Origin: a virus
Lineage: Duplodnaviria > Heunggongvirae > Uroviricota > Caudoviricetes
Virus record (IMG/VR): IMGVR_UViG_2872198387_000006
Strand: one strand, 5' to 3'
DNA: 54,166 nt
A model generated the notes under the pieces. It searched no databases. It was given only the letters and a program-made list of their open reading frames with translations, and was not told the DNA's origin. The translations under genes and the position numbers were made by a program. Positions 30,599 through 39,285 of the stretch are shown here, one piece after another (position 1 is the stretch's first letter; each line of letters begins with the position of its first letter).

Positions 30599-30673
<75 letters not shown>

Positions 30674-30676
30674 ATA

Positions 30677-30752
<76 letters not shown>

Positions 30753-30754
30753 GC

Positions 30755-30831
30755 TGGCCCACCACCGAGGACTCGAACCTCGCACCGTCAACTTAGAAGG
30801 TTGATGCTCTATCCGGATGAGCTAGTGGTGG
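30755..30831 (-). tRNA. tRNA-Arg (anticodon UCU)
   Basis: 77 nt with anticodon loop CTTCTAA and T-arm GGTTCGAGTCC; acceptor stem CCACCAC/GTGGTGG. Confidence 0.75.
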
Positions 30832-30832
30832 T

Positions 30833-30909
30833 TGGTGGCCCTTGCTGGACTTGAACCAGCGACCTGGCGATTATGAGTCGCTCGCTCTGACCAACTGAGC
30901 TAAAGGGCC
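30833..30909 (-). tRNA. tRNA with CAU anticodon, most likely tRNA-Ile2 (lysidine) by resemblance to E. coli ileX; tRNA-Met not excluded
   Basis: 77 nt GGCCCTTTAGCTCAG...ACTCATAATCG...GGGCCACCA. Confidence 0.7.
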
Positions 30910-31776: not shown

Positions 31777-32034
31777 TCAGCGCAGCGCCTCCTGCACCAG
31801 TTTTTCAAACTTTCCGACTCTGGTTTCCAGCTCTGCCACACAGTCCACCAGCTCATCTACTGCTTTCTGTGCGCGATGCTTCGCCTGCATCAGTTCCCGA
31901 AGCGCGGGTACCATATCTTTACGGATAGCATCTTTTGTTATGCCCGTTTTTTCGAGTTGTTCAGCATGACGCAGCATTTCCTGCGCGTGTTTACGCAATT
32001 GTTCAGGGGTAAAAGTCATTGTCTGGTTGTTCAA
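31777..32034 (-). CDS. Hypothetical phage protein (nin region)
   Basis: 85-aa ORF between the helicase and NinH; not recognised. Confidence 0.4.
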   Translation of the reverse strand: MNNQTMTFTPEQLRKHAQEMLRHAEQLEKTGITKDAIRKDMVPALRELMQAKHRAQKAVDELVDCVAELETRVGKFEKLVQEALR

Positions 32035-33422
32035 AAGAAACGCTCCATCTTACTGCTGTCAGTTCGTTTATTACTGTATCTGCGCGGATTGCCGGGCTTC
32101 ATGGGAGTGGAAAGCACCCGTGCACTTTCCTGGTCCACAGGCAGAAAATGTCCGTTATAAAAACGCCGGTAAATCGTTCCCAGAGAACCGTTACGTTGTT
32201 TCGTGATATTGATTTCTGCGATGCCCCTGGCCTGCGTATCCGGGTTGTACACTTCATCCCTGTAAAGCATCAGAATGATGTCTGCATCCGCCTCTATTTC
32301 TCCGGAATTTTTCAGGTCTGAGTTCATGGGACGTTTATTGGGTCTGGACTCCACACCGCGGGAGAGCTGGCTCAGCGCAATCAACGGAAAACCACCGGAT
32401 TTTGCCAGGCCTTTAAGCCCCTTTGAGATTTCACCCACGGCAAGGTCATGACGCCCCGTGGTTCGGGTTTTTATCAGCCCGAGATAATCAACCACCACCA
32501 GCGCCGTTTCCGGATATTTAATCAGGTGGTGTTTCGTTGTTGCGCATATCTCATCAATGGCCAGGTTCGCCTGGTCCACCATCCAGATATTGCGCCCGGT
32601 CATCCGCCCCACCCCTTGTGAGAAACGCGTCCAGTCTTCATCTTCAAAGTGAGCCACAGATTTCAGGCGTGATACTGGCATCCCTCCAGCCGCAGACACC
32701 ATACGTTCACCAATCTGGATGTTCGCCATCTCCATGGTGAACAGAAGCACACCATGCCCCTGCTCAGTCACCTTGTCGATGATGTCCAGCGCAAGTTCGG
32801 TTTTCCCCATCGAAGGACGGGCGGCAATGAATACCAGGTCTCCGGGCTCCATACCGCCTGTTTTTGCGTCCAGTTCATCAATACCGGTCATCAACGTCCT
32901 GGATTTCTCCAGCCCCTGATTCCGGCATTCAACACGCTCAACCACTTCCGGAAGCACATCATCAATATGTACCGGCTGAATGACGCCCTTTCCTGTCGAC
33001 AGTGTGACCATCATGTTCTGCGCATCCTTCAGGGCATCTTCAGCTGCTTCACAGGTATGCGCATCACGTAATTTCTGCAGCGCCTCATTCAGTGTTTTTT
33101 CTGCATCGCGCAGTGCGGCATTGCGCCGCAACGCTGCAACATAGTGCTCCAGTGAAGACTTCACCCAGGTTTTACGCCCGGTATCAGTAATCACCGGGGC
33201 AAGTTCCGGCATCTCATTACACAACAGCACGGGGTCAATCACTCCTGAAACACGGGCCTGTCTGCAGATGCCTGTATAGATATCCTGATACGCTCGTACA
33301 GAAAAAACGTCCGCTGGCAGTGTGGCCAGAATATCCATCACTTCAGGATCTGCTCCGCGCAGAAAGAACGCGCCGATGACAGCGCCTTCAAGGTCATCGT
33401 TACGCCATACTGGAGTTGTCAT
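32031..33422 (-). CDS. DnaB-like replicative DNA helicase
   Basis: 463 aa with Walker A (ARPSMGKTELAL) and DnaB C-terminal helicase motifs. Confidence 0.8.
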   Translation of the reverse strand: MTTPVWRNDDLEGAVIGAFFLRGADPEVMDILATLPADVFSVRAYQDIYTGICRQARVSGVIDPVLLCNEMPELAPVITDTGRKTWVKSSLEHYVAALRRNAALRDAEKTLNEALQKLRDAHTCEAAEDALKDAQNMMVTLSTGKGVIQPVHIDDVLPEVVERVECRNQGLEKSRTLMTGIDELDAKTGGMEPGDLVFIAARPSMGKTELALDIIDKVTEQGHGVLLFTMEMANIQIGERMVSAAGGMPVSRLKSVAHFEDEDWTRFSQGVGRMTGRNIWMVDQANLAIDEICATTKHHLIKYPETALVVVDYLGLIKTRTTGRHDLAVGEISKGLKGLAKSGGFPLIALSQLSRGVESRPNKRPMNSDLKNSGEIEADADIILMLYRDEVYNPDTQARGIAEINITKQRNGSLGTIYRRFYNGHFLPVDQESARVLSTPMKPGNPRRYSNKRTDSSKMERFF

Positions 33423-34306
33423 GCAGCCACACCTCTGATACGAGAACGGTAACTGGGCCAGTTAAACGACAACCAGTTGCGTCCCCCGTCTGTGATCCTG
33501 TCGGCAATTCGGGGACTGATGAACGCCCACAACTCTTCCGGTGAGAGGTTACTGATAAGAATGGTGGGCAAGATACTTTCGTACCTGGCGTTGATAATTT
33601 CCTGCAAAATAGCCATTTCAGCCGCGCTGCCAAACTGAACGCCAACTTCGTCGATGATCAGCAAATCCATTGACGCATAACGCTCAATAACTTCATCCGC
33701 TGTTTTTTCGCTGTCATTCCGCCAGCAATTTTTCACAGCACGGGTAAGGCGCATCACGTCGGTGATCTCCACACTGGCCAGATAGTTACGGATGATGTGT
33801 TTTGCCATAGCCACAGCCAGATGATTTTTTCCGGTACCACAACTGCCGGTCATAACAAGACTGGTACCGTTCTCCAGCATATCTGGCCAGTTCTCCGCAT
33901 AGCGGCGACAGGCCGCAAGATTTCTGGCTGCGCCAGGATTAACCTCCAGATAATTATCAAACTCGCAGTCCCGAAAACGCAGGGCAATTCCGGCGTTATC
34001 AGTCAGCTCTTCCGCCTTGATGGACGACAGCTCCATGGTCAAATCGTTGGCCTCAGCGATTAAGCAGTCAGGGCAGCATGAAATTTCTTCTCTGTCCTCG
34101 CCATTACGATCGCTCCACACCAGTATATGCGTGTGATATTCGCCATGTTTTTCGCAATATCCGCGACCTTCACGCATCAGGCAGGAACGATAAGGCCATG
34201 GCTTTTCGCCCTTCTGAGCAAATGCAATCTCTGCCCGTAACTCATCCATTCGCGCCTGTAGTCTTTTTTGTTGTTCACGCAGGTTAAACGTCATCATCGC
34301 TGTCAC
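33419..34306 (-). CDS. DnaC/IstB-like AAA+ helicase loader
   Basis: 295 aa with Walker A GSCGTGKNHLAVA and Walker B LLIIDEVG. Confidence 0.75.
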   Translation of the reverse strand: MTAMMTFNLREQQKRLQARMDELRAEIAFAQKGEKPWPYRSCLMREGRGYCEKHGEYHTHILVWSDRNGEDREEISCCPDCLIAEANDLTMELSSIKAEELTDNAGIALRFRDCEFDNYLEVNPGAARNLAACRRYAENWPDMLENGTSLVMTGSCGTGKNHLAVAMAKHIIRNYLASVEITDVMRLTRAVKNCWRNDSEKTADEVIERYASMDLLIIDEVGVQFGSAAEMAILQEIINARYESILPTILISNLSPEELWAFISPRIADRITDGGRNWLSFNWPSYRSRIRGVAA

Positions 34307-34307
34307 C

Positions 34308-35222
34308 TCAGAATGTCAGTTTGTCACTGGATTTACCGAATTTGTCAGACATGGCTCCCAGGCCAGCCAGGACATCGACCTGTCGCTGTCGCCCACCTCT
34401 GGGAGCGGCTGGCTGTTGCCAGAAGTCTTCGAAGTGACGATCGGGTCCAAAGAACGTCGCAGCCTGCTTCACGAACTGTGTGCCGGTATTTCCTGTGGCA
34501 CGTACCCAGGCAGCATAGCGTTTCACGCCATCAAGCATGGCTTCAGGTTTTATTCCCTCCCTGAGCCGGGCTTTCCAGGCTTTGAAGGCTGCGGATTTTG
34601 AGTTACCACCAGCACGTTTTGGATATTCCTGCCAGGCCTGTTCAAATTCCGGTGAATATTCCTGTCGGGAAGAACGCGCTGGTGCAGACGCGTCAGCGGA
34701 TGCGCCAATAGTGTTTTTACTCTCTGTAGTATTCTCTGAAGTAATCTCTGTTGTATTCTCTGTAAGATCGAAATTGGTTTTCCCTTCTCCGCGGCGAGGG
34801 GTTTCCCGTGTCCGCGGTGAAGGCTTTCCCTCCTCCGCGAAATTGGGTTTTACAGTTTCCCGAAAACGGGTTTCCCCATTTCGGGAAAACTGATTGTTTT
34901 CATTGATAATTTCATTAAGGCGCTCACAATCTATACGGTAGAACATTTTGTGCTCAAGACGCTTGTTGGTTTCAACCAAAATGCCTCTGGACACAAGATG
35001 CTTACGCGCTACAGCCTGTTGTTCAAATGTAAGTCCGGTTTCGTGTTGTATCTCTTCACGCGTTTTATGTACGCCTTCCGCTGCATGTGCTTTATCCTGC
35101 CAGTAAAAAATCTGACCAAAGAAAATAACAGCGTGCGGACTTCCCATGTATTTAACGAGCCCAGGGTAATAAGCAACCGGATGTCCAAAATCGAGCAGAA
35201 GATCAGACGGACGCATAGCCAC
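34308..35222 (-). CDS. Replication initiator (lambda O-like replisome organiser) containing the origin iterons
   Basis: 304 aa; position upstream of the loader and helicase; internal DNA iterons; repetitive acidic middle segment. Confidence 0.65.
   Translation of the reverse strand: MAMRPSDLLLDFGHPVAYYPGLVKYMGSPHAVIFFGQIFYWQDKAHAAEGVHKTREEIQHETGLTFEQQAVARKHLVSRGILVETNKRLEHKMFYRIDCERLNEIINENNQFSRNGETRFRETVKPNFAEEGKPSPRTRETPRRGEGKTNFDLTENTTEITSENTTESKNTIGASADASAPARSSRQEYSPEFEQAWQEYPKRAGGNSKSAAFKAWKARLREGIKPEAMLDGVKRYAAWVRATGNTGTQFVKQAATFFGPDRHFEDFWQQPAAPRGGRQRQVDVLAGLGAMSDKFGKSSDKLTF
34720..34930. repeat. Putative phage replication origin: two iteron arrays plus AT-rich tract inside the initiator gene
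   Basis: Four or more copies of TATTCTCTG-type 11-12-bp repeats (34721-34766), five GG(G/T)TTTCCC...TCCGCG-type repeats (34775-34890), then an AT-rich stretch. Confidence 0.6.
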
Positions 35223-35436
35223 CTCCCAGGCGTTTAAACATTTTTCCGGGCTGAAACGCCACCAGCGGATAACTCAGGGTATGAGTACGTCCCTGAACCT
35301 GGCAGACAACCTTCTGGCTTTCGGTACTGACCAGGCAAACCCGCAGAACGTAGCCGTTGCTGGTGGTGAACCACTGCCCCACACGGGGGCAATGGTTGTA
35401 TCGGTGATACAGGAAATTAACGATGTGGCGGATCAT
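35203..35436 (-). CDS. Hypothetical small phage protein
   Basis: 77-aa ORF between Rha and the initiator; not recognised. Confidence 0.3.
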   Translation of the reverse strand: MIRHIVNFLYHRYNHCPRVGQWFTTSNGYVLRVCLVSTESQKVVCQVQGRTHTLSYPLVAFQPGKMFKRLGGGYASV

Positions 35437-35996
35437 GGGCGCACCTCCTTGTCAGAACCATTCAGCCTGGAATCAACAAGTGCAGCACCAAAAACAGCAT
35501 CACCTACACGGTCGTACAGTTTGCCAGCCAGCGGAGATTCAACGGCCTTAAGCATTGGGTAAAGCTGGCTTGTCCAGATTTGATGGATTTCACGCAAATG
35601 CAGGTATACGCCTCTGGCGTTTTGTGCGACAGATGACATGTCAGCCGCACCAGCTCCTGATAAGCTCCTCTCCATCTGGTTAAAGGCATTGATGTATGCC
35701 TCTTTGAACCGGGCGGCACGTTTACCAGTGAAGCCCATAGCAAGGAAGGCGAAGCCGCCGCGGGTAATTTGGTAGCAGGGAAGTTTGCGAGTACCGCCGT
35801 TGGGCTGGCGTACCAAAATTGATGTCTCCGCAAAATTGCGGGCACAAAACTCTGGAGAACAATCCAAAATGCGGATCTTTTTCAGAACATCGTCATGACG
35901 TTTAGAGAAGAAGTTGGCAACAGCCAGGGATGAAGTAACAGCCTAACCATCAACGATGGCAATTTCAGGTTGAGAGAGGGTTGGGAGAGTAGTCAT
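35433..35996 (-). pseudogene. rha: Rha-family phage regulatory protein, frameshifted near 35940
   Basis: N-terminal MTTLPTLSQPEIAIVDG (from 35996) then, in another frame, ...FSKRHDDVLKKIRIL...GFAFLAMGFTGKRAARFKEAYINAFNQME (Rha signature). Confidence 0.65.
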
Positions 35997-36314
35997 GGTG
36001 ACAGCCCCTATGTTGAATTCAAAGAACTCACCACATGGGACGCCAATCACAGAGGTGGTGAGACGTACAGGGTTGGCGTAACCGGTCAACATAGAACCCG
36101 GCGCATCTTGCGATGTCCCTGCACGCCCCACCATAATTTGGGCGTAGCAATGCTCATGACACGAAAAAACCGCATGAGCGCGGTTATGCTCTATATTGAA
36201 TTTCAGGACGCCAATCCCGGCCCCCGCTTTATAAGGTGCAGAGACAGTGTAACGTCCCGAAATTGCAGAATCAATATATTGTGCAGATATAACGATTTTG
36301 TTATGTTTTGCTGT

Positions 36315-36644
36315 ATGAACTACACTATCGAATACTACAGTGAAGAGGTCCGACTGGAGGTCGATCAGCTTCCATTGAGTATGCGTGCCAGATACCAGCA
36401 TCTTGTTGAACGCATGAAGGTATACGGCAGCAATCTCGGAGAACCTCACACCAGCGCCTTTGGTGACGGGCTTTTCGAACTCAGAATTAAAGGCAACGAT
36501 GGGATCGCGCGTGTTTTTTACTGCACTCTGACAGGGAAACGCATCATCATGCTGCATAGTTTTGTAAAGAAAGCGCAGAAAACACCGCCAGCCGAACGCA
36601 AGAAAGCTGAAACCAGAATGAAGGAGGTTAAGCATGACTGGTAA
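36315..36644 (+). CDS. HigB-like toxin (RelE/ParE superfamily)
   Basis: 109 aa from MNYTIEYY..., immediately upstream of and overlapping an HTH antitoxin gene. Confidence 0.65.
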   Translation: MNYTIEYYSEEVRLEVDQLPLSMRARYQHLVERMKVYGSNLGEPHTSAFGDGLFELRIKGNDGIARVFYCTLTGKRIIMLHSFVKKAQKTPPAERKKAETRMKEVKHDW

Positions 36645-36942
36645 ACGCACTCTCCCCACCATGACACACGACGAAATGGCAGCCAAATGGATGGAAGACC
36701 CGGCTTTTAAAGCAGAATACGACGCTATCGCTGACGAATTCGCACTGCTTGATGAAATGCTGGCAGCACGCAAAGAAGCTGGCTTAACTCAGGCTGAAGT
36801 TGCCGAGCGAATGGGAACAAAAGCGACCGCGATCACCAGAATGGAAAGTAATCTCGCATCAGGTATCAGCGGCCCATCATTTGCCACACTAAAAAAATTC
36901 GCCCGCGCTACTGGAAAAAAACTCCAGATCCGCTTCGTTTAA
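36634..36942 (+). CDS. HigA-like antitoxin (XRE-family helix-turn-helix)
   Basis: 102 aa with HTH ...GLTQAEVAERMGTKATAITRME... Confidence 0.7.
   Translation: MTGKRTLPTMTHDEMAAKWMEDPAFKAEYDAIADEFALLDEMLAARKEAGLTQAEVAERMGTKATAITRMESNLASGISGPSFATLKKFARATGKKLQIRFV

Positions 36943-38116: not shown

Positions 38117-39285
<1,169 letters not shown>

Follow-up and report, generated by a model that had tools for sequence, protein, structure and literature searches.

Which DNA does the initiator of a lambdoid prophage recognize when that initiator has no detectable relation to lambda O, and where would the duplex open? The question is raised by a replication initiator gene in IMG/VR record IMGVR_UViG_2872198387_000006, a 54,166-nucleotide stretch of caudoviricete DNA that was analyzed as a whole and is called the window here. 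Inside this gene lie two adjoining arrays of short tandem repeats and an AT-rich segment. A sequence-only reading had interpreted them as a lambda-type origin in which the initiator binds iterons within its own coding sequence. Our analysis indicates that positions 34716 to 34890 are probably the replication origin of the prophage, located within its own initiator gene, in the central part that codes for a linker, in the style of lambda and RepA_N. As judged by comparison with relatives, the 23-bp repeats would serve as phage-specific recognition sites, and the 12-bp repeats (the tract) would be a generic module of a very large initiator superfamily.

The 12-bp repeats, the 23-bp repeats, and the AT-rich segment were all recovered where the sequence-only reading had placed them, by Tandem Repeats Finder (TRF), by a repeat finder, and by autocorrelation of the window. 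The gene around them is a replication initiator gene (PHROG 270, "replication initiation protein"; E = 5e-65), directly followed by a DnaC-like and then a DnaB-like gene. The order of the elements, 12-bp repeats first, had been listed in reverse, because the gene lies on the minus strand. In the sense direction, the AT-rich segment is followed by an inverted half-site, five 23-bp units, four 12-bp units, and a GC-rich inverted repeat, as follows.

34308 to 35216, minus strand: replication initiator gene, 302 amino acids from the ATG at 35216 (open reading frame [ORF] and PHROG match)
34308 to 35222, minus strand: the same ORF from an alternative start, GTG at 35222, 304 amino acids
34887 to 34925, minus strand: upstream AT-rich segment, GC content of 27.5%, the gene's least stable 30-mer
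34879 to 34890, minus strand: inverted half-site GTTTTCCCGAAA before iteron 1 (repeat finder, inverted repeat I1/I3)
34856 to 34878, minus strand: iteron 1, TGGGGAAACCCGTTTTCGGGAAA (23-bp register)
34833 to 34855, minus strand: iteron 2, CTGTAAAACCCAATTTCGCGGAG (23-bp register)
34810 to 34832, minus strand: iteron 3, GAGGGAAAGCCTTCACCGCGGAC (23-bp register, TRF/repeat finder)
34787 to 34809, minus strand: iteron 4, ACGGGAAACCCCTCGCCGCGGAG (23-bp register, TRF/repeat finder)
34764 to 34786, minus strand: iteron 5, AAGGGAAAACCAATTTCGATCTT (23-bp register), abutting the 12-bp tract
34716 to 34763, minus strand: 12-bp tract, four units of ACAGAGAWTACW (TRF period 12, 3.7 copies, score 67)
34677 to 34698, minus strand: GC-rich imperfect inverted repeat CGCTGACGCGTCTGCACCAGCG just downstream of the tract (inverted repeat I6)

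The five 23-bp units (34878 to 34764) stand in strict register. Three of them are strong (TRF period 23, score 80), and the two promoter-proximal units are more divergent and together form an inverted repeat. The only GATC nearby, at 34766 to 34769, is inside iteron 5. On the sense strand, the four 12-bp units (34763 to 34716) read ACAGAGAATACA, ACAGAGATTACT, TCAGAGAATACT, and ACAGAGAGTAAA. We scanned the whole 54-kb window by autocorrelation at lags of 6 to 60. Lag 23 gave 62 matches out of 92, the best single value among about 3 million combinations of position and lag, and the 12-bp array (28 of 36 matches) was also top ranked; the observation of the repeats is therefore confirmed. These two arrays are the strongest short-period repeats of the window, in which the motif GGGAAAMCC occurs eight times (0.9 expected). 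The scan also picked up further short-period repeats at approximately 1277 to 1340 and 53312 to 53400 (lag 60 and lag 38, respectively).

To relate the repeats to the protein, we used an AlphaFold2 model of the initiator built on 27 homologues (mean predicted local distance difference test [pLDDT] score, 58.8). The model has two folded domains.

34899 to 35165, minus strand: winged-helix N-terminal domain (N-domain), amino acids 20 to 108, with the FFGQIFYW helix (AlphaFold2, pLDDT 66 to 78)
34404 to 34664, minus strand: helical C-terminal domain (C-domain), amino acids 187 to 273 (AlphaFold2, pLDDT 80 to 90)

Amino acids 109 to 186 form a disordered linker between the two domains (pLDDT of about 30), and this is exactly the segment encoded by the repeats. 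The N-domain, with a helix-helix-strand-helix-helix-hairpin-helix topology, is predicted to be the iteron binder. In Foldseek searches it gave weak winged-helix matches (E = 0.03 to 0.1), among them the N-domain of staphylococcal RepA_N proteins, free or in complex with iteron DNA (4pql, 4pt7, and the DNA-bound 5kbj), and that of DnaD (2v79). The C-domain is predicted to recruit the helicase loader and helicase. Its DNA is 93 to 95% identical to that of phiP27-type initiators (mosaic sharing), and the inverted repeat at 34677 to 34698 is part of this exchangeable C-module.

Successive 23-bp units start in frames 2, 1, 0, 2, and 1 and thus use all three reading frames; since 23 is not divisible by three, the units cannot be explained by a repeat in the peptide. 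Six relatives entered a comparison, namely, the window itself, sequences from Klebsiella, Serratia, and Pantoea, a metagenome, and an IMG/VR contig. Amino acid identity was 0.82 in the N-domain, 0.51 in the iteron segment, and 0.48 in the C-domain. The corresponding identities at codon positions 1, 2, and 3 were 0.86, 0.92, and 0.42 in the N-domain, 0.70, 0.71, and 0.68 in the iteron segment, and 0.64, 0.65, and 0.39 in the C-domain; at synonymous sites they were 0.43, 0.78, and 0.48, respectively. The length of the array is also kept, with the tract starting at nucleotide 453 in five of the six relatives. An alignment of 25 units gave the consensus nnGGrAAAyCC-N4-yyCG, with four invariant positions and a partly dyad-symmetric core. 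The iterons are identical where the N-domains share 99% identity, retain core and phasing at 85% and 55%, and are unrelated (replaced) once N-domain identity falls below about 50%. Because the units keep their register yet change as the N-domain diverges, we regard them as specific iterons. This is the pattern expected of N-domain binding sites, and the covariation leads us to predict that the N-domain binds them. In the wider family, a tandem array directly upstream of the tract was significant in 158 of 188 nonredundant loci, with a period of 23 bp in 118, 22 bp in 25, 21 bp in 8, and 24 bp in 5.

The 12-bp tract is conserved at the DNA level, independently of its translation. We analyzed the tract units that lie outside the ascertained 22-mer by codon position. 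Conservation was highest at third positions (93, 81, 98, and 95%) and variation greatest at second positions; any of the four bases occurs at position 8, and synonymous GAG-to-GAA changes (2 cases) were rarer than GAG-to-GAT changes (14 cases). Synonymous-site identity in the tract reached 0.92 among protein-ascertained relatives, compared to 0.43 to 0.48 in the flanking domains. Even in contigs with GC contents of 66% and 61%, the tract is kept as ACAGAGACTACA-type units with A/T-ending codons, and the GC content at third codon positions is 0.25 and 0.40 in the tract compared to 0.79 and 0.73 elsewhere in the gene. One genome contig (L219; ORF 2062 to 3316, tract orientation) encodes an apparently intact 418-amino-acid initiator in which the tract is read in frame +1 as IDYYRDYYRDY, and this protein is homologous on both sides of the tract to proteins that read the same DNA as TEITTEI. 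Another locus (L253, 176 to 1015) has two copies of a 13-nucleotide variant, ACACTAGATTACA; translation switches frame between the units, yielding the peptide TLDYNTRLH. Since this peptide recurs in many family members, there may be a second tract subtype.

The tract also occurs where it is not translated at all. The Bacillus rolling-circle plasmid pBSG3 (L245; NC_014104.1, approximately 730 to 845) carries three 23-bp iterons and three tract units as noncoding DNA that no initiator ORF surrounds, and the same element is present on five sister plasmids of 8.4 kb. Identity between the plasmid copy and the origin within the initiator gene of Bacillus phage PM1 is 79%, and the copy may be a natural decoy (Per-like) or a hitchhiking origin.

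How widely is the tract distributed? By Megablast, a 40-bp piece that corresponds to the tract was approximately 97% identical in more than 1,400 complete Escherichia coli genomes, where the copies sit in otherwise unrelated replication genes (e.g., that of mEp460). Scans with ACAGAGAWTACWWCAGAGAWTA gave at least 120 matches in IMG/VR and at least 120 in a one-genome-per-species set of GTDB, for which we estimate about 1 match by chance. The tract follows unrelated 23-bp iteron arrays at more than 240 loci in Proteobacteria, Firmicutes, Cyanobacteria, Chloroflexi, and others. Carriers include Enterobacterales, Acinetobacter, Vibrionaceae, Legionellales, and Campylobacter; Bacillaceae, Staphylococcus, Lachnospiraceae, Clostridium, and Caldanaerobacter; and Nostocales and one Chloroflexi genome. 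Sequenced phages and phage-plasmids have it too. In 114 of the 120 genome matches listed, the tract lies 140 to 250 amino acids into an ORF of about 300 amino acids, in the same frame and directly after a lineage-specific tandem array, and its placement and frame are the same in 121 of the 123 loci of the viral-contig set. We set aside four loci (L018, L125, L141, and L164) as chance matches, as these encode low-complexity RDY/N-repeat proteins with the pattern in a different frame. The matches of the tract-sequence searches included no plasmid annotated as RepA_N. About 600 nucleotides upstream of the tract in one locus (L221) there is a regularly repeated translated unit (…LVPKQIT*L*N…), which may be an array resembling clustered regularly interspaced short palindromic repeats (CRISPR) or of another kind. 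Neither the tract nor the 23-bp period shared across the family was described in the literature searched, which does not prove them unpublished; the tract appears not to have been described before, and these two points appear to be new.

An iterated hidden Markov model (HMM) seeded by the window protein united 178 of the 179 N-domains of tract-bearing ORFs and recruited no reversed decoys. The resulting N-domain family has 3,661 representatives of 50%-identity clusters (E ≤ 1e-3). The C-terminal domains of the tract-bearing ORFs are diverse (DnaB_2/DnaD-like, Phg_2220_C, DUF6017, lambda-O-C-like, and the window type). For this analysis we defined a "YW" winged-helix initiator superfamily, characterized by 23-bp iterons plus the tract. 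The window protein belongs to it by its N-domain profile and by an array of approximately 23-bp period directly before at least two ACAGAGAWTACW units in linker-coding DNA. A single tract-bearing superfamily that excludes HTH_36-type initiators had to be rejected, since the iterated profile also takes in the tractless phiP27-type N-domains; the tract therefore marks a subfamily of a wider winged-helix group.

Within this group the tract tracks the type of N-domain, not the C-domain, host, or loader: with identical C-domains, hosts, and DnaC/DnaB-like neighbors, YW-helix initiators have the tract and HTH_36-type (phiP27-like) initiators lack it. As it travels with the N-domain and iteron module, the tract is not the specificity determinant. 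The TATTCTCTG-type 12-mers had been taken as iterons and as that determinant, a view at odds with the same tract following unrelated iterons at hundreds of loci across phyla. HTH_36-type initiators that share the C-domain of the window and lack the tract carry other short repeats after their iterons: phiP27 (L002, 2420 to 2500) has two copies of AAAACATGATCCGCAAG, and another initiator (P0091) has a 12-bp repeat encoding (EPVN)x3. Each initiator subfamily may therefore have a post-iteron element of its own.

If the tract does not set specificity, what does it do? In lambda, the iterons and an unwinding-prone AT-rich region lie inside O, and in-frame deletions there inactivate the origin but not the O protein (PMC7466680, PMC6022878). 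The unwinding-prone part is a 39-bp High-AT-rich region (PMC6022878). Two loci (L012 and L013) allow a positional comparison, because their C-module is lambda-O-like and has the ori palindrome of lambda itself, ATTCGTCnnAGAATTCTGGCGAAT, at its start. In the interval from the last iteron to the palindrome, these loci have the tract where lambda has its High-AT-rich region. In the window, the tract has a GC content of 33 to 37% (about 65% A+T) and ranks second among the 30-mers of the gene for low stability (z = +2.2). Of 200 family ORFs, 51% have their global stability minimum at a position overlapping the tract, compared to about 4% by chance; among the ORFs with a gene GC content of at least 0.45, the share is 75%. 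The 60 nucleotides after the tract are enriched in inverted repeats (182 loci; P = 1.5e-24), and GC content rises there to 0.52 to 0.54; a CGCG cluster after the tract was not enriched (0.16, versus 0.10 to 0.16 in controls). We propose that the tract is the functional counterpart of the lambda AT-rich region, that is, a candidate site of opening and helicase entry.

We also considered whether the lambda region is itself a degenerate tract. This was rejected, as matrix scores inside the region were negative; the lone 11/12 match in lambda (TCAGAGAATTCT at 39163) falls in the palindrome and scores below the 95th percentile of shuffled sequences. Sequence-specific recognition of the tract is implied by its strictly conserved C/G positions and by the insufficiency of low stability in AT-rich hosts. 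Given the association of the tract with the N-domain family, the initiator itself seems the best candidate for the reader.

Several observations weigh against assigning these roles to the iterons and the tract. The association of the tract with the N-domain could partly reflect physical linkage. Most loci came from a DNA pattern search, which is biased toward exact copies, and the protein-ascertained sets lessen this bias without removing it. The fold matches of the N-domain are weak (E = 0.03 to 0.1), and the confidence of the model is moderate (mean pLDDT, 58.8). The A+T content of the tract is only about 65%, and among ORFs with a GC content below 0.38, just 10% have their global stability minimum there. 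Finally, the AT-rich segment upstream is slightly less stable than the tract in this gene, so the unwinding site could be there.

Could the tract instead be the site of a conserved host factor, or act in the transcript (as an R-loop or a primer from the purine-rich mRNA), without being read by the initiator? Such a role would be in keeping with nucleotide-level conservation across phyla, with a sense strand that is 64% purine, and with the requirement of the lambda origin for transcriptional activation (PMC7466680). We nevertheless consider it unlikely. HTH_36-type initiators that have the same host, C-domain, and DnaC/DnaB-like neighbors do without the tract, and the noncoding pBSG3 copy is in no recognizable initiator gene. 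The tract also bears no resemblance that we could find to a DnaA box, an IHF site, or an oriC 13-mer. Between 34300 and 35300 there was no DnaA box (TTATNCACA) with up to one mismatch, as would mark a DnaA-dependent origin, no IHF site within one mismatch, and no oriC 13-mer (GATCTnTTnTTTT) within two mismatches.

Less probable still is the arrangement originally suggested for this gene, in which both repeat sets are initiator-binding iterons that jointly set specificity and the AT-rich segment at 34891 to 34930 is the unwinding element. The two sets are indeed tandem and adjoining, and the AT-rich segment, as the least stable 30-mer of the gene, has a duplex stability z score of +2.5 (top 0.4% of window positions). 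However, the 12-mer tract is identical beside dozens of unrelated iteron types and N-domain clusters and so cannot set specificity. The final N-domain helix (LNEIINENNQ), which is conserved, is encoded by the AT-rich segment, and codons for Ile, Asn, and Glu are AT-rich by nature. The segment also lies upstream of the iterons, whereas the AT-rich region of lambda is on their other side, where the tract is; the positional equivalent of the lambda region is thus the 12-mer tract. The comparison with the lambda origin holds for the iterons, the low-stability tract, and the inverted repeat and fails for the AT-rich element, which is on the wrong side.

The tract might also be mainly a recombination-promoting junction between N- and C-modules, or a favored flexible linker, with no direct role in initiation. 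Modules are exchanged right at or after the tract (the window versus phiP27, P0036, and L003), the reading frame is constant in about 95 to 98% of matches, and TExT-like peptides are widespread in the family. A linker selected as peptide would not leave third codon positions the most conserved and second positions the most variable, with GAG-to-GAA rarer than GAG-to-GAT. Nor would it be kept against codon bias, in another frame, as a frame-changing 13-nucleotide variant, and as noncoding DNA together with iterons. Selection for evolvability is too weak to keep 22 of 22 nucleotides across phyla, and we give this explanation very little weight. Practically negligible is the possibility that the repeats are a by-product of a low-complexity protein segment and that the true origin is elsewhere in the prophage: they do encode a disordered segment, and 12 bp is a multiple of three, but the 23-bp period is out of frame, synonymous sites are conserved (0.78 and 0.92), and the same architecture, which includes the strongest tandem repeats of the window, is found family-wide. 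The sequence-only reading had itself named a protein-level repeat without conserved spacing as the finding that would undo it; on testing, spacing was conserved among the relatives.

Assignment of 34716 to 34890 as the probable origin, with iterons for recognition and the tract for opening, invites comparison with known systems. As in lambda and the lambdoid and Stx (Shiga toxin)-phage variants with four to six iterons, the candidate origin is in the middle of the initiator gene, with partly dyad-symmetric iterons spaced approximately 20 to 24 bp apart. As in lambda, a low-stability tract and then an inverted repeat lie downstream of the iterons, and the encoded segment is a linker that joins an N-domain for DNA binding to a C-domain for recruitment of a helicase-loading partner, both roles being predictions here. 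Iterons and N-domain vary together between phages, the C-module is exchangeable, and the gene is in an early-right operon, again as in lambda. The locus thus has tandem repeats in its own initiator gene, a low-stability region downstream of them, and DNA-level selection of the repeats, which together make up a lambda-type origin architecture.

The protein is another matter. Its N-terminal part matches PHROG families labeled "O-like," and the designation of the gene as O-like is apt for its architecture. As for membership in the lambda O family (PF04492, Phage_rep_O), there was no Pfam hit (E < 0.01), hhalign against lambda O gave a probability of 0.3%, and the iterated family HMM does not recruit the lambda O N-domain. 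No NCBIfam family was found for the initiator either, and a sequence search of the PDB gave no match. Unlike lambda, this system has no detectable sequence relation to O, has five iterons at a strict 23-bp period, and has a sequence-defined 12-bp repeat, without a match to the lambda AT-rich region, instead of a tract of about 80% A+T. Its predicted partners are a DnaC-like loader and the phage's own DnaB-like helicase, not lambda P.

In the Firmicutes RepA_N plasmid pSK41, the origin is central within rep and encodes a dispensable linker, and the winged-helix N-terminal domain of Rep binds the repeats there, four Rep boxes (PMC5703833). RepA_N proteins have a DnaD-like fold and host- or partner-specific C-terminal domains, and chimeric initiators have arisen by swapping of the N-terminal domain together with the origin, as in pPR9 (PMC5703833). 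The three-part layout of pSK41 Rep (winged helix-turn-helix N-terminal domain, origin-encoded linker, and partner-specific C-terminal domain) is found here too, in the AlphaFold2 model and the C-module mosaics. The window protein gave no Pfam hit to RepA_N (PF06970) and no PDB sequence match, its fold resemblance is weak, and, unlike RepA_N, its family is mainly phage- and prophage-borne and spread across many phyla.

A third comparison is with the 13-mer unwinding elements of oriC and RK2 oriV. These share with the tract an arrangement of 2 to 5 tandem 12- to 13-nucleotide repeats beside an initiator array, low stability, and a defined sequence and position. In oriC and RK2 the specific sequences of the 13-mers matter, and Rep proteins bind one strand of the DNA unwinding element. 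The tract differs in its unrelated sequence, in its location inside a coding region in a fixed frame, and in its conservation across phyla rather than within one replicon family. Lastly, the locus resembles the replication regions of Eru-type "non-lambdoid" Stx phages, which have DnaB-like helicase genes and no lambda O/P. The Eru papers (Llarena et al. 2021; Fagerlund et al. 2022) classify gene content, and a term search of them found no mention of iterons or origins.

On the comparative evidence, we propose initiation in the following steps. The winged-helix N-domain would bind the five 23-bp iterons as an ordered oligomer, and this complex would destabilize the adjoining four-unit tract of ACAGAGAWTACW, which would be read sequence specifically, most likely through a conserved feature of the initiator family. 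The helical C-domain would then bring the phage's own DnaC-like loader and DnaB-like helicase onto the opened tract. By analogy with lambda, early-right transcription may help the opening, as the origin is within a transcribed gene. A broader proposal, which we put forward tentatively, is that ACAGAGAnTAC(A/T), repeated 2 to 5 times right after iterons of 23-bp period, may be an unrecognized sequence-specific element for opening and helicase entry, common to a very large cross-phylum superfamily of phages, prophages, and phage-plasmids. Its reader might be a conserved feature of the oligomerized winged-helix N-domain, and it might be read in single-stranded form, as DnaA-trios are by DnaA. Together, iterons and tract could then be a mobile cis module open to capture by other replicons (pBSG3), either as a decoy or as a hitchhiking origin.

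The gene order around the initiator is that of a lambdoid early-right operon. In the closest complete genome it runs repressor/cro-like, Rha/BRO/ash, initiator, loader, helicase, ninH, Q, tRNAs, and lysis. The two genes downstream of the initiator are as follows.

33419 to 34306, minus strand: DnaC/IstB-like AAA+ helicase-loader gene (Pfam IstB_IS21, 1.6e-15; PHROG 50; NCBIfam DnaC-like, 1.4e-38, below the cutoff)
32031 to 33422, minus strand: DnaB-like replicative helicase gene (Pfam DnaB_C, 3e-72, plus a DnaB N-terminal domain)

The initiator start at ATG 35216 is also the Prokaryotic Genome Annotation Pipeline (PGAP) annotation in a 99.9% identical E. coli O121 record, and near-identical (96.5%) initiator genes are found in Stx1a, Stx2a, and Stx2d phages. 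Promoter and terminator scans gave sites no more numerous than in shuffled sequence, and a terminator-like hairpin on the antisense strand corresponds to nothing more than the inverted repeat of iteron 1. A 77-amino-acid ORF (35203 to 35436, minus strand; PHROG 1153, unknown function, 7e-42) overlaps the initiator start and is kept at the same position in the O121 record. Farther upstream (36051 to 36239, minus strand), adjacent Rfam matches to C4 antisense RNA (RF01695, 74.8 bits) and isrK (RF01394, 58.1 bits) sit just upstream of a Rha/Ant-like ORF (35433 to 35867), so that this region looks like a P1/P7-type antisense-controlled antirepressor module within a lambdoid prophage. Two overlapping ORFs at 35970 to 36942 (plus strand) run opposite to the early operon; by eye, they resemble a RelE/HigB-type toxin C terminus followed by a helix-turn-helix antitoxin. 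Between the Q region and the lysis genes (30599 to 30909, minus strand) are four tRNA genes, Gly-TCC, Thr-TGT, Arg-TCT, and one with a CAT anticodon, which PGAP assigns to Ile in the near-identical record.

For the prophage, the result pinpoints a probable origin and separates the element for specificity (the iterons) from a generic one (the tract), which is relevant to its Stx-phage relatives, in which replication drives the dosage of the toxin gene. Many unannotated phage proteins labeled "DNA-binding" or "replication" share one design, in which about five iterons with a period of 23 bp precede a 12-bp tract conserved at the nucleotide level, and the tract could be a simple signature for finding origins in the genomes of thousands of phages, prophages, and phage-plasmids. 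It is also an example of strong DNA-level selection that overrides codon usage within genes, and the system is tractable for studying how an initiator other than DnaA opens DNA. The noncoding copy on a plasmid suggests natural origin capture, which is relevant to the conflict between phages and plasmids.

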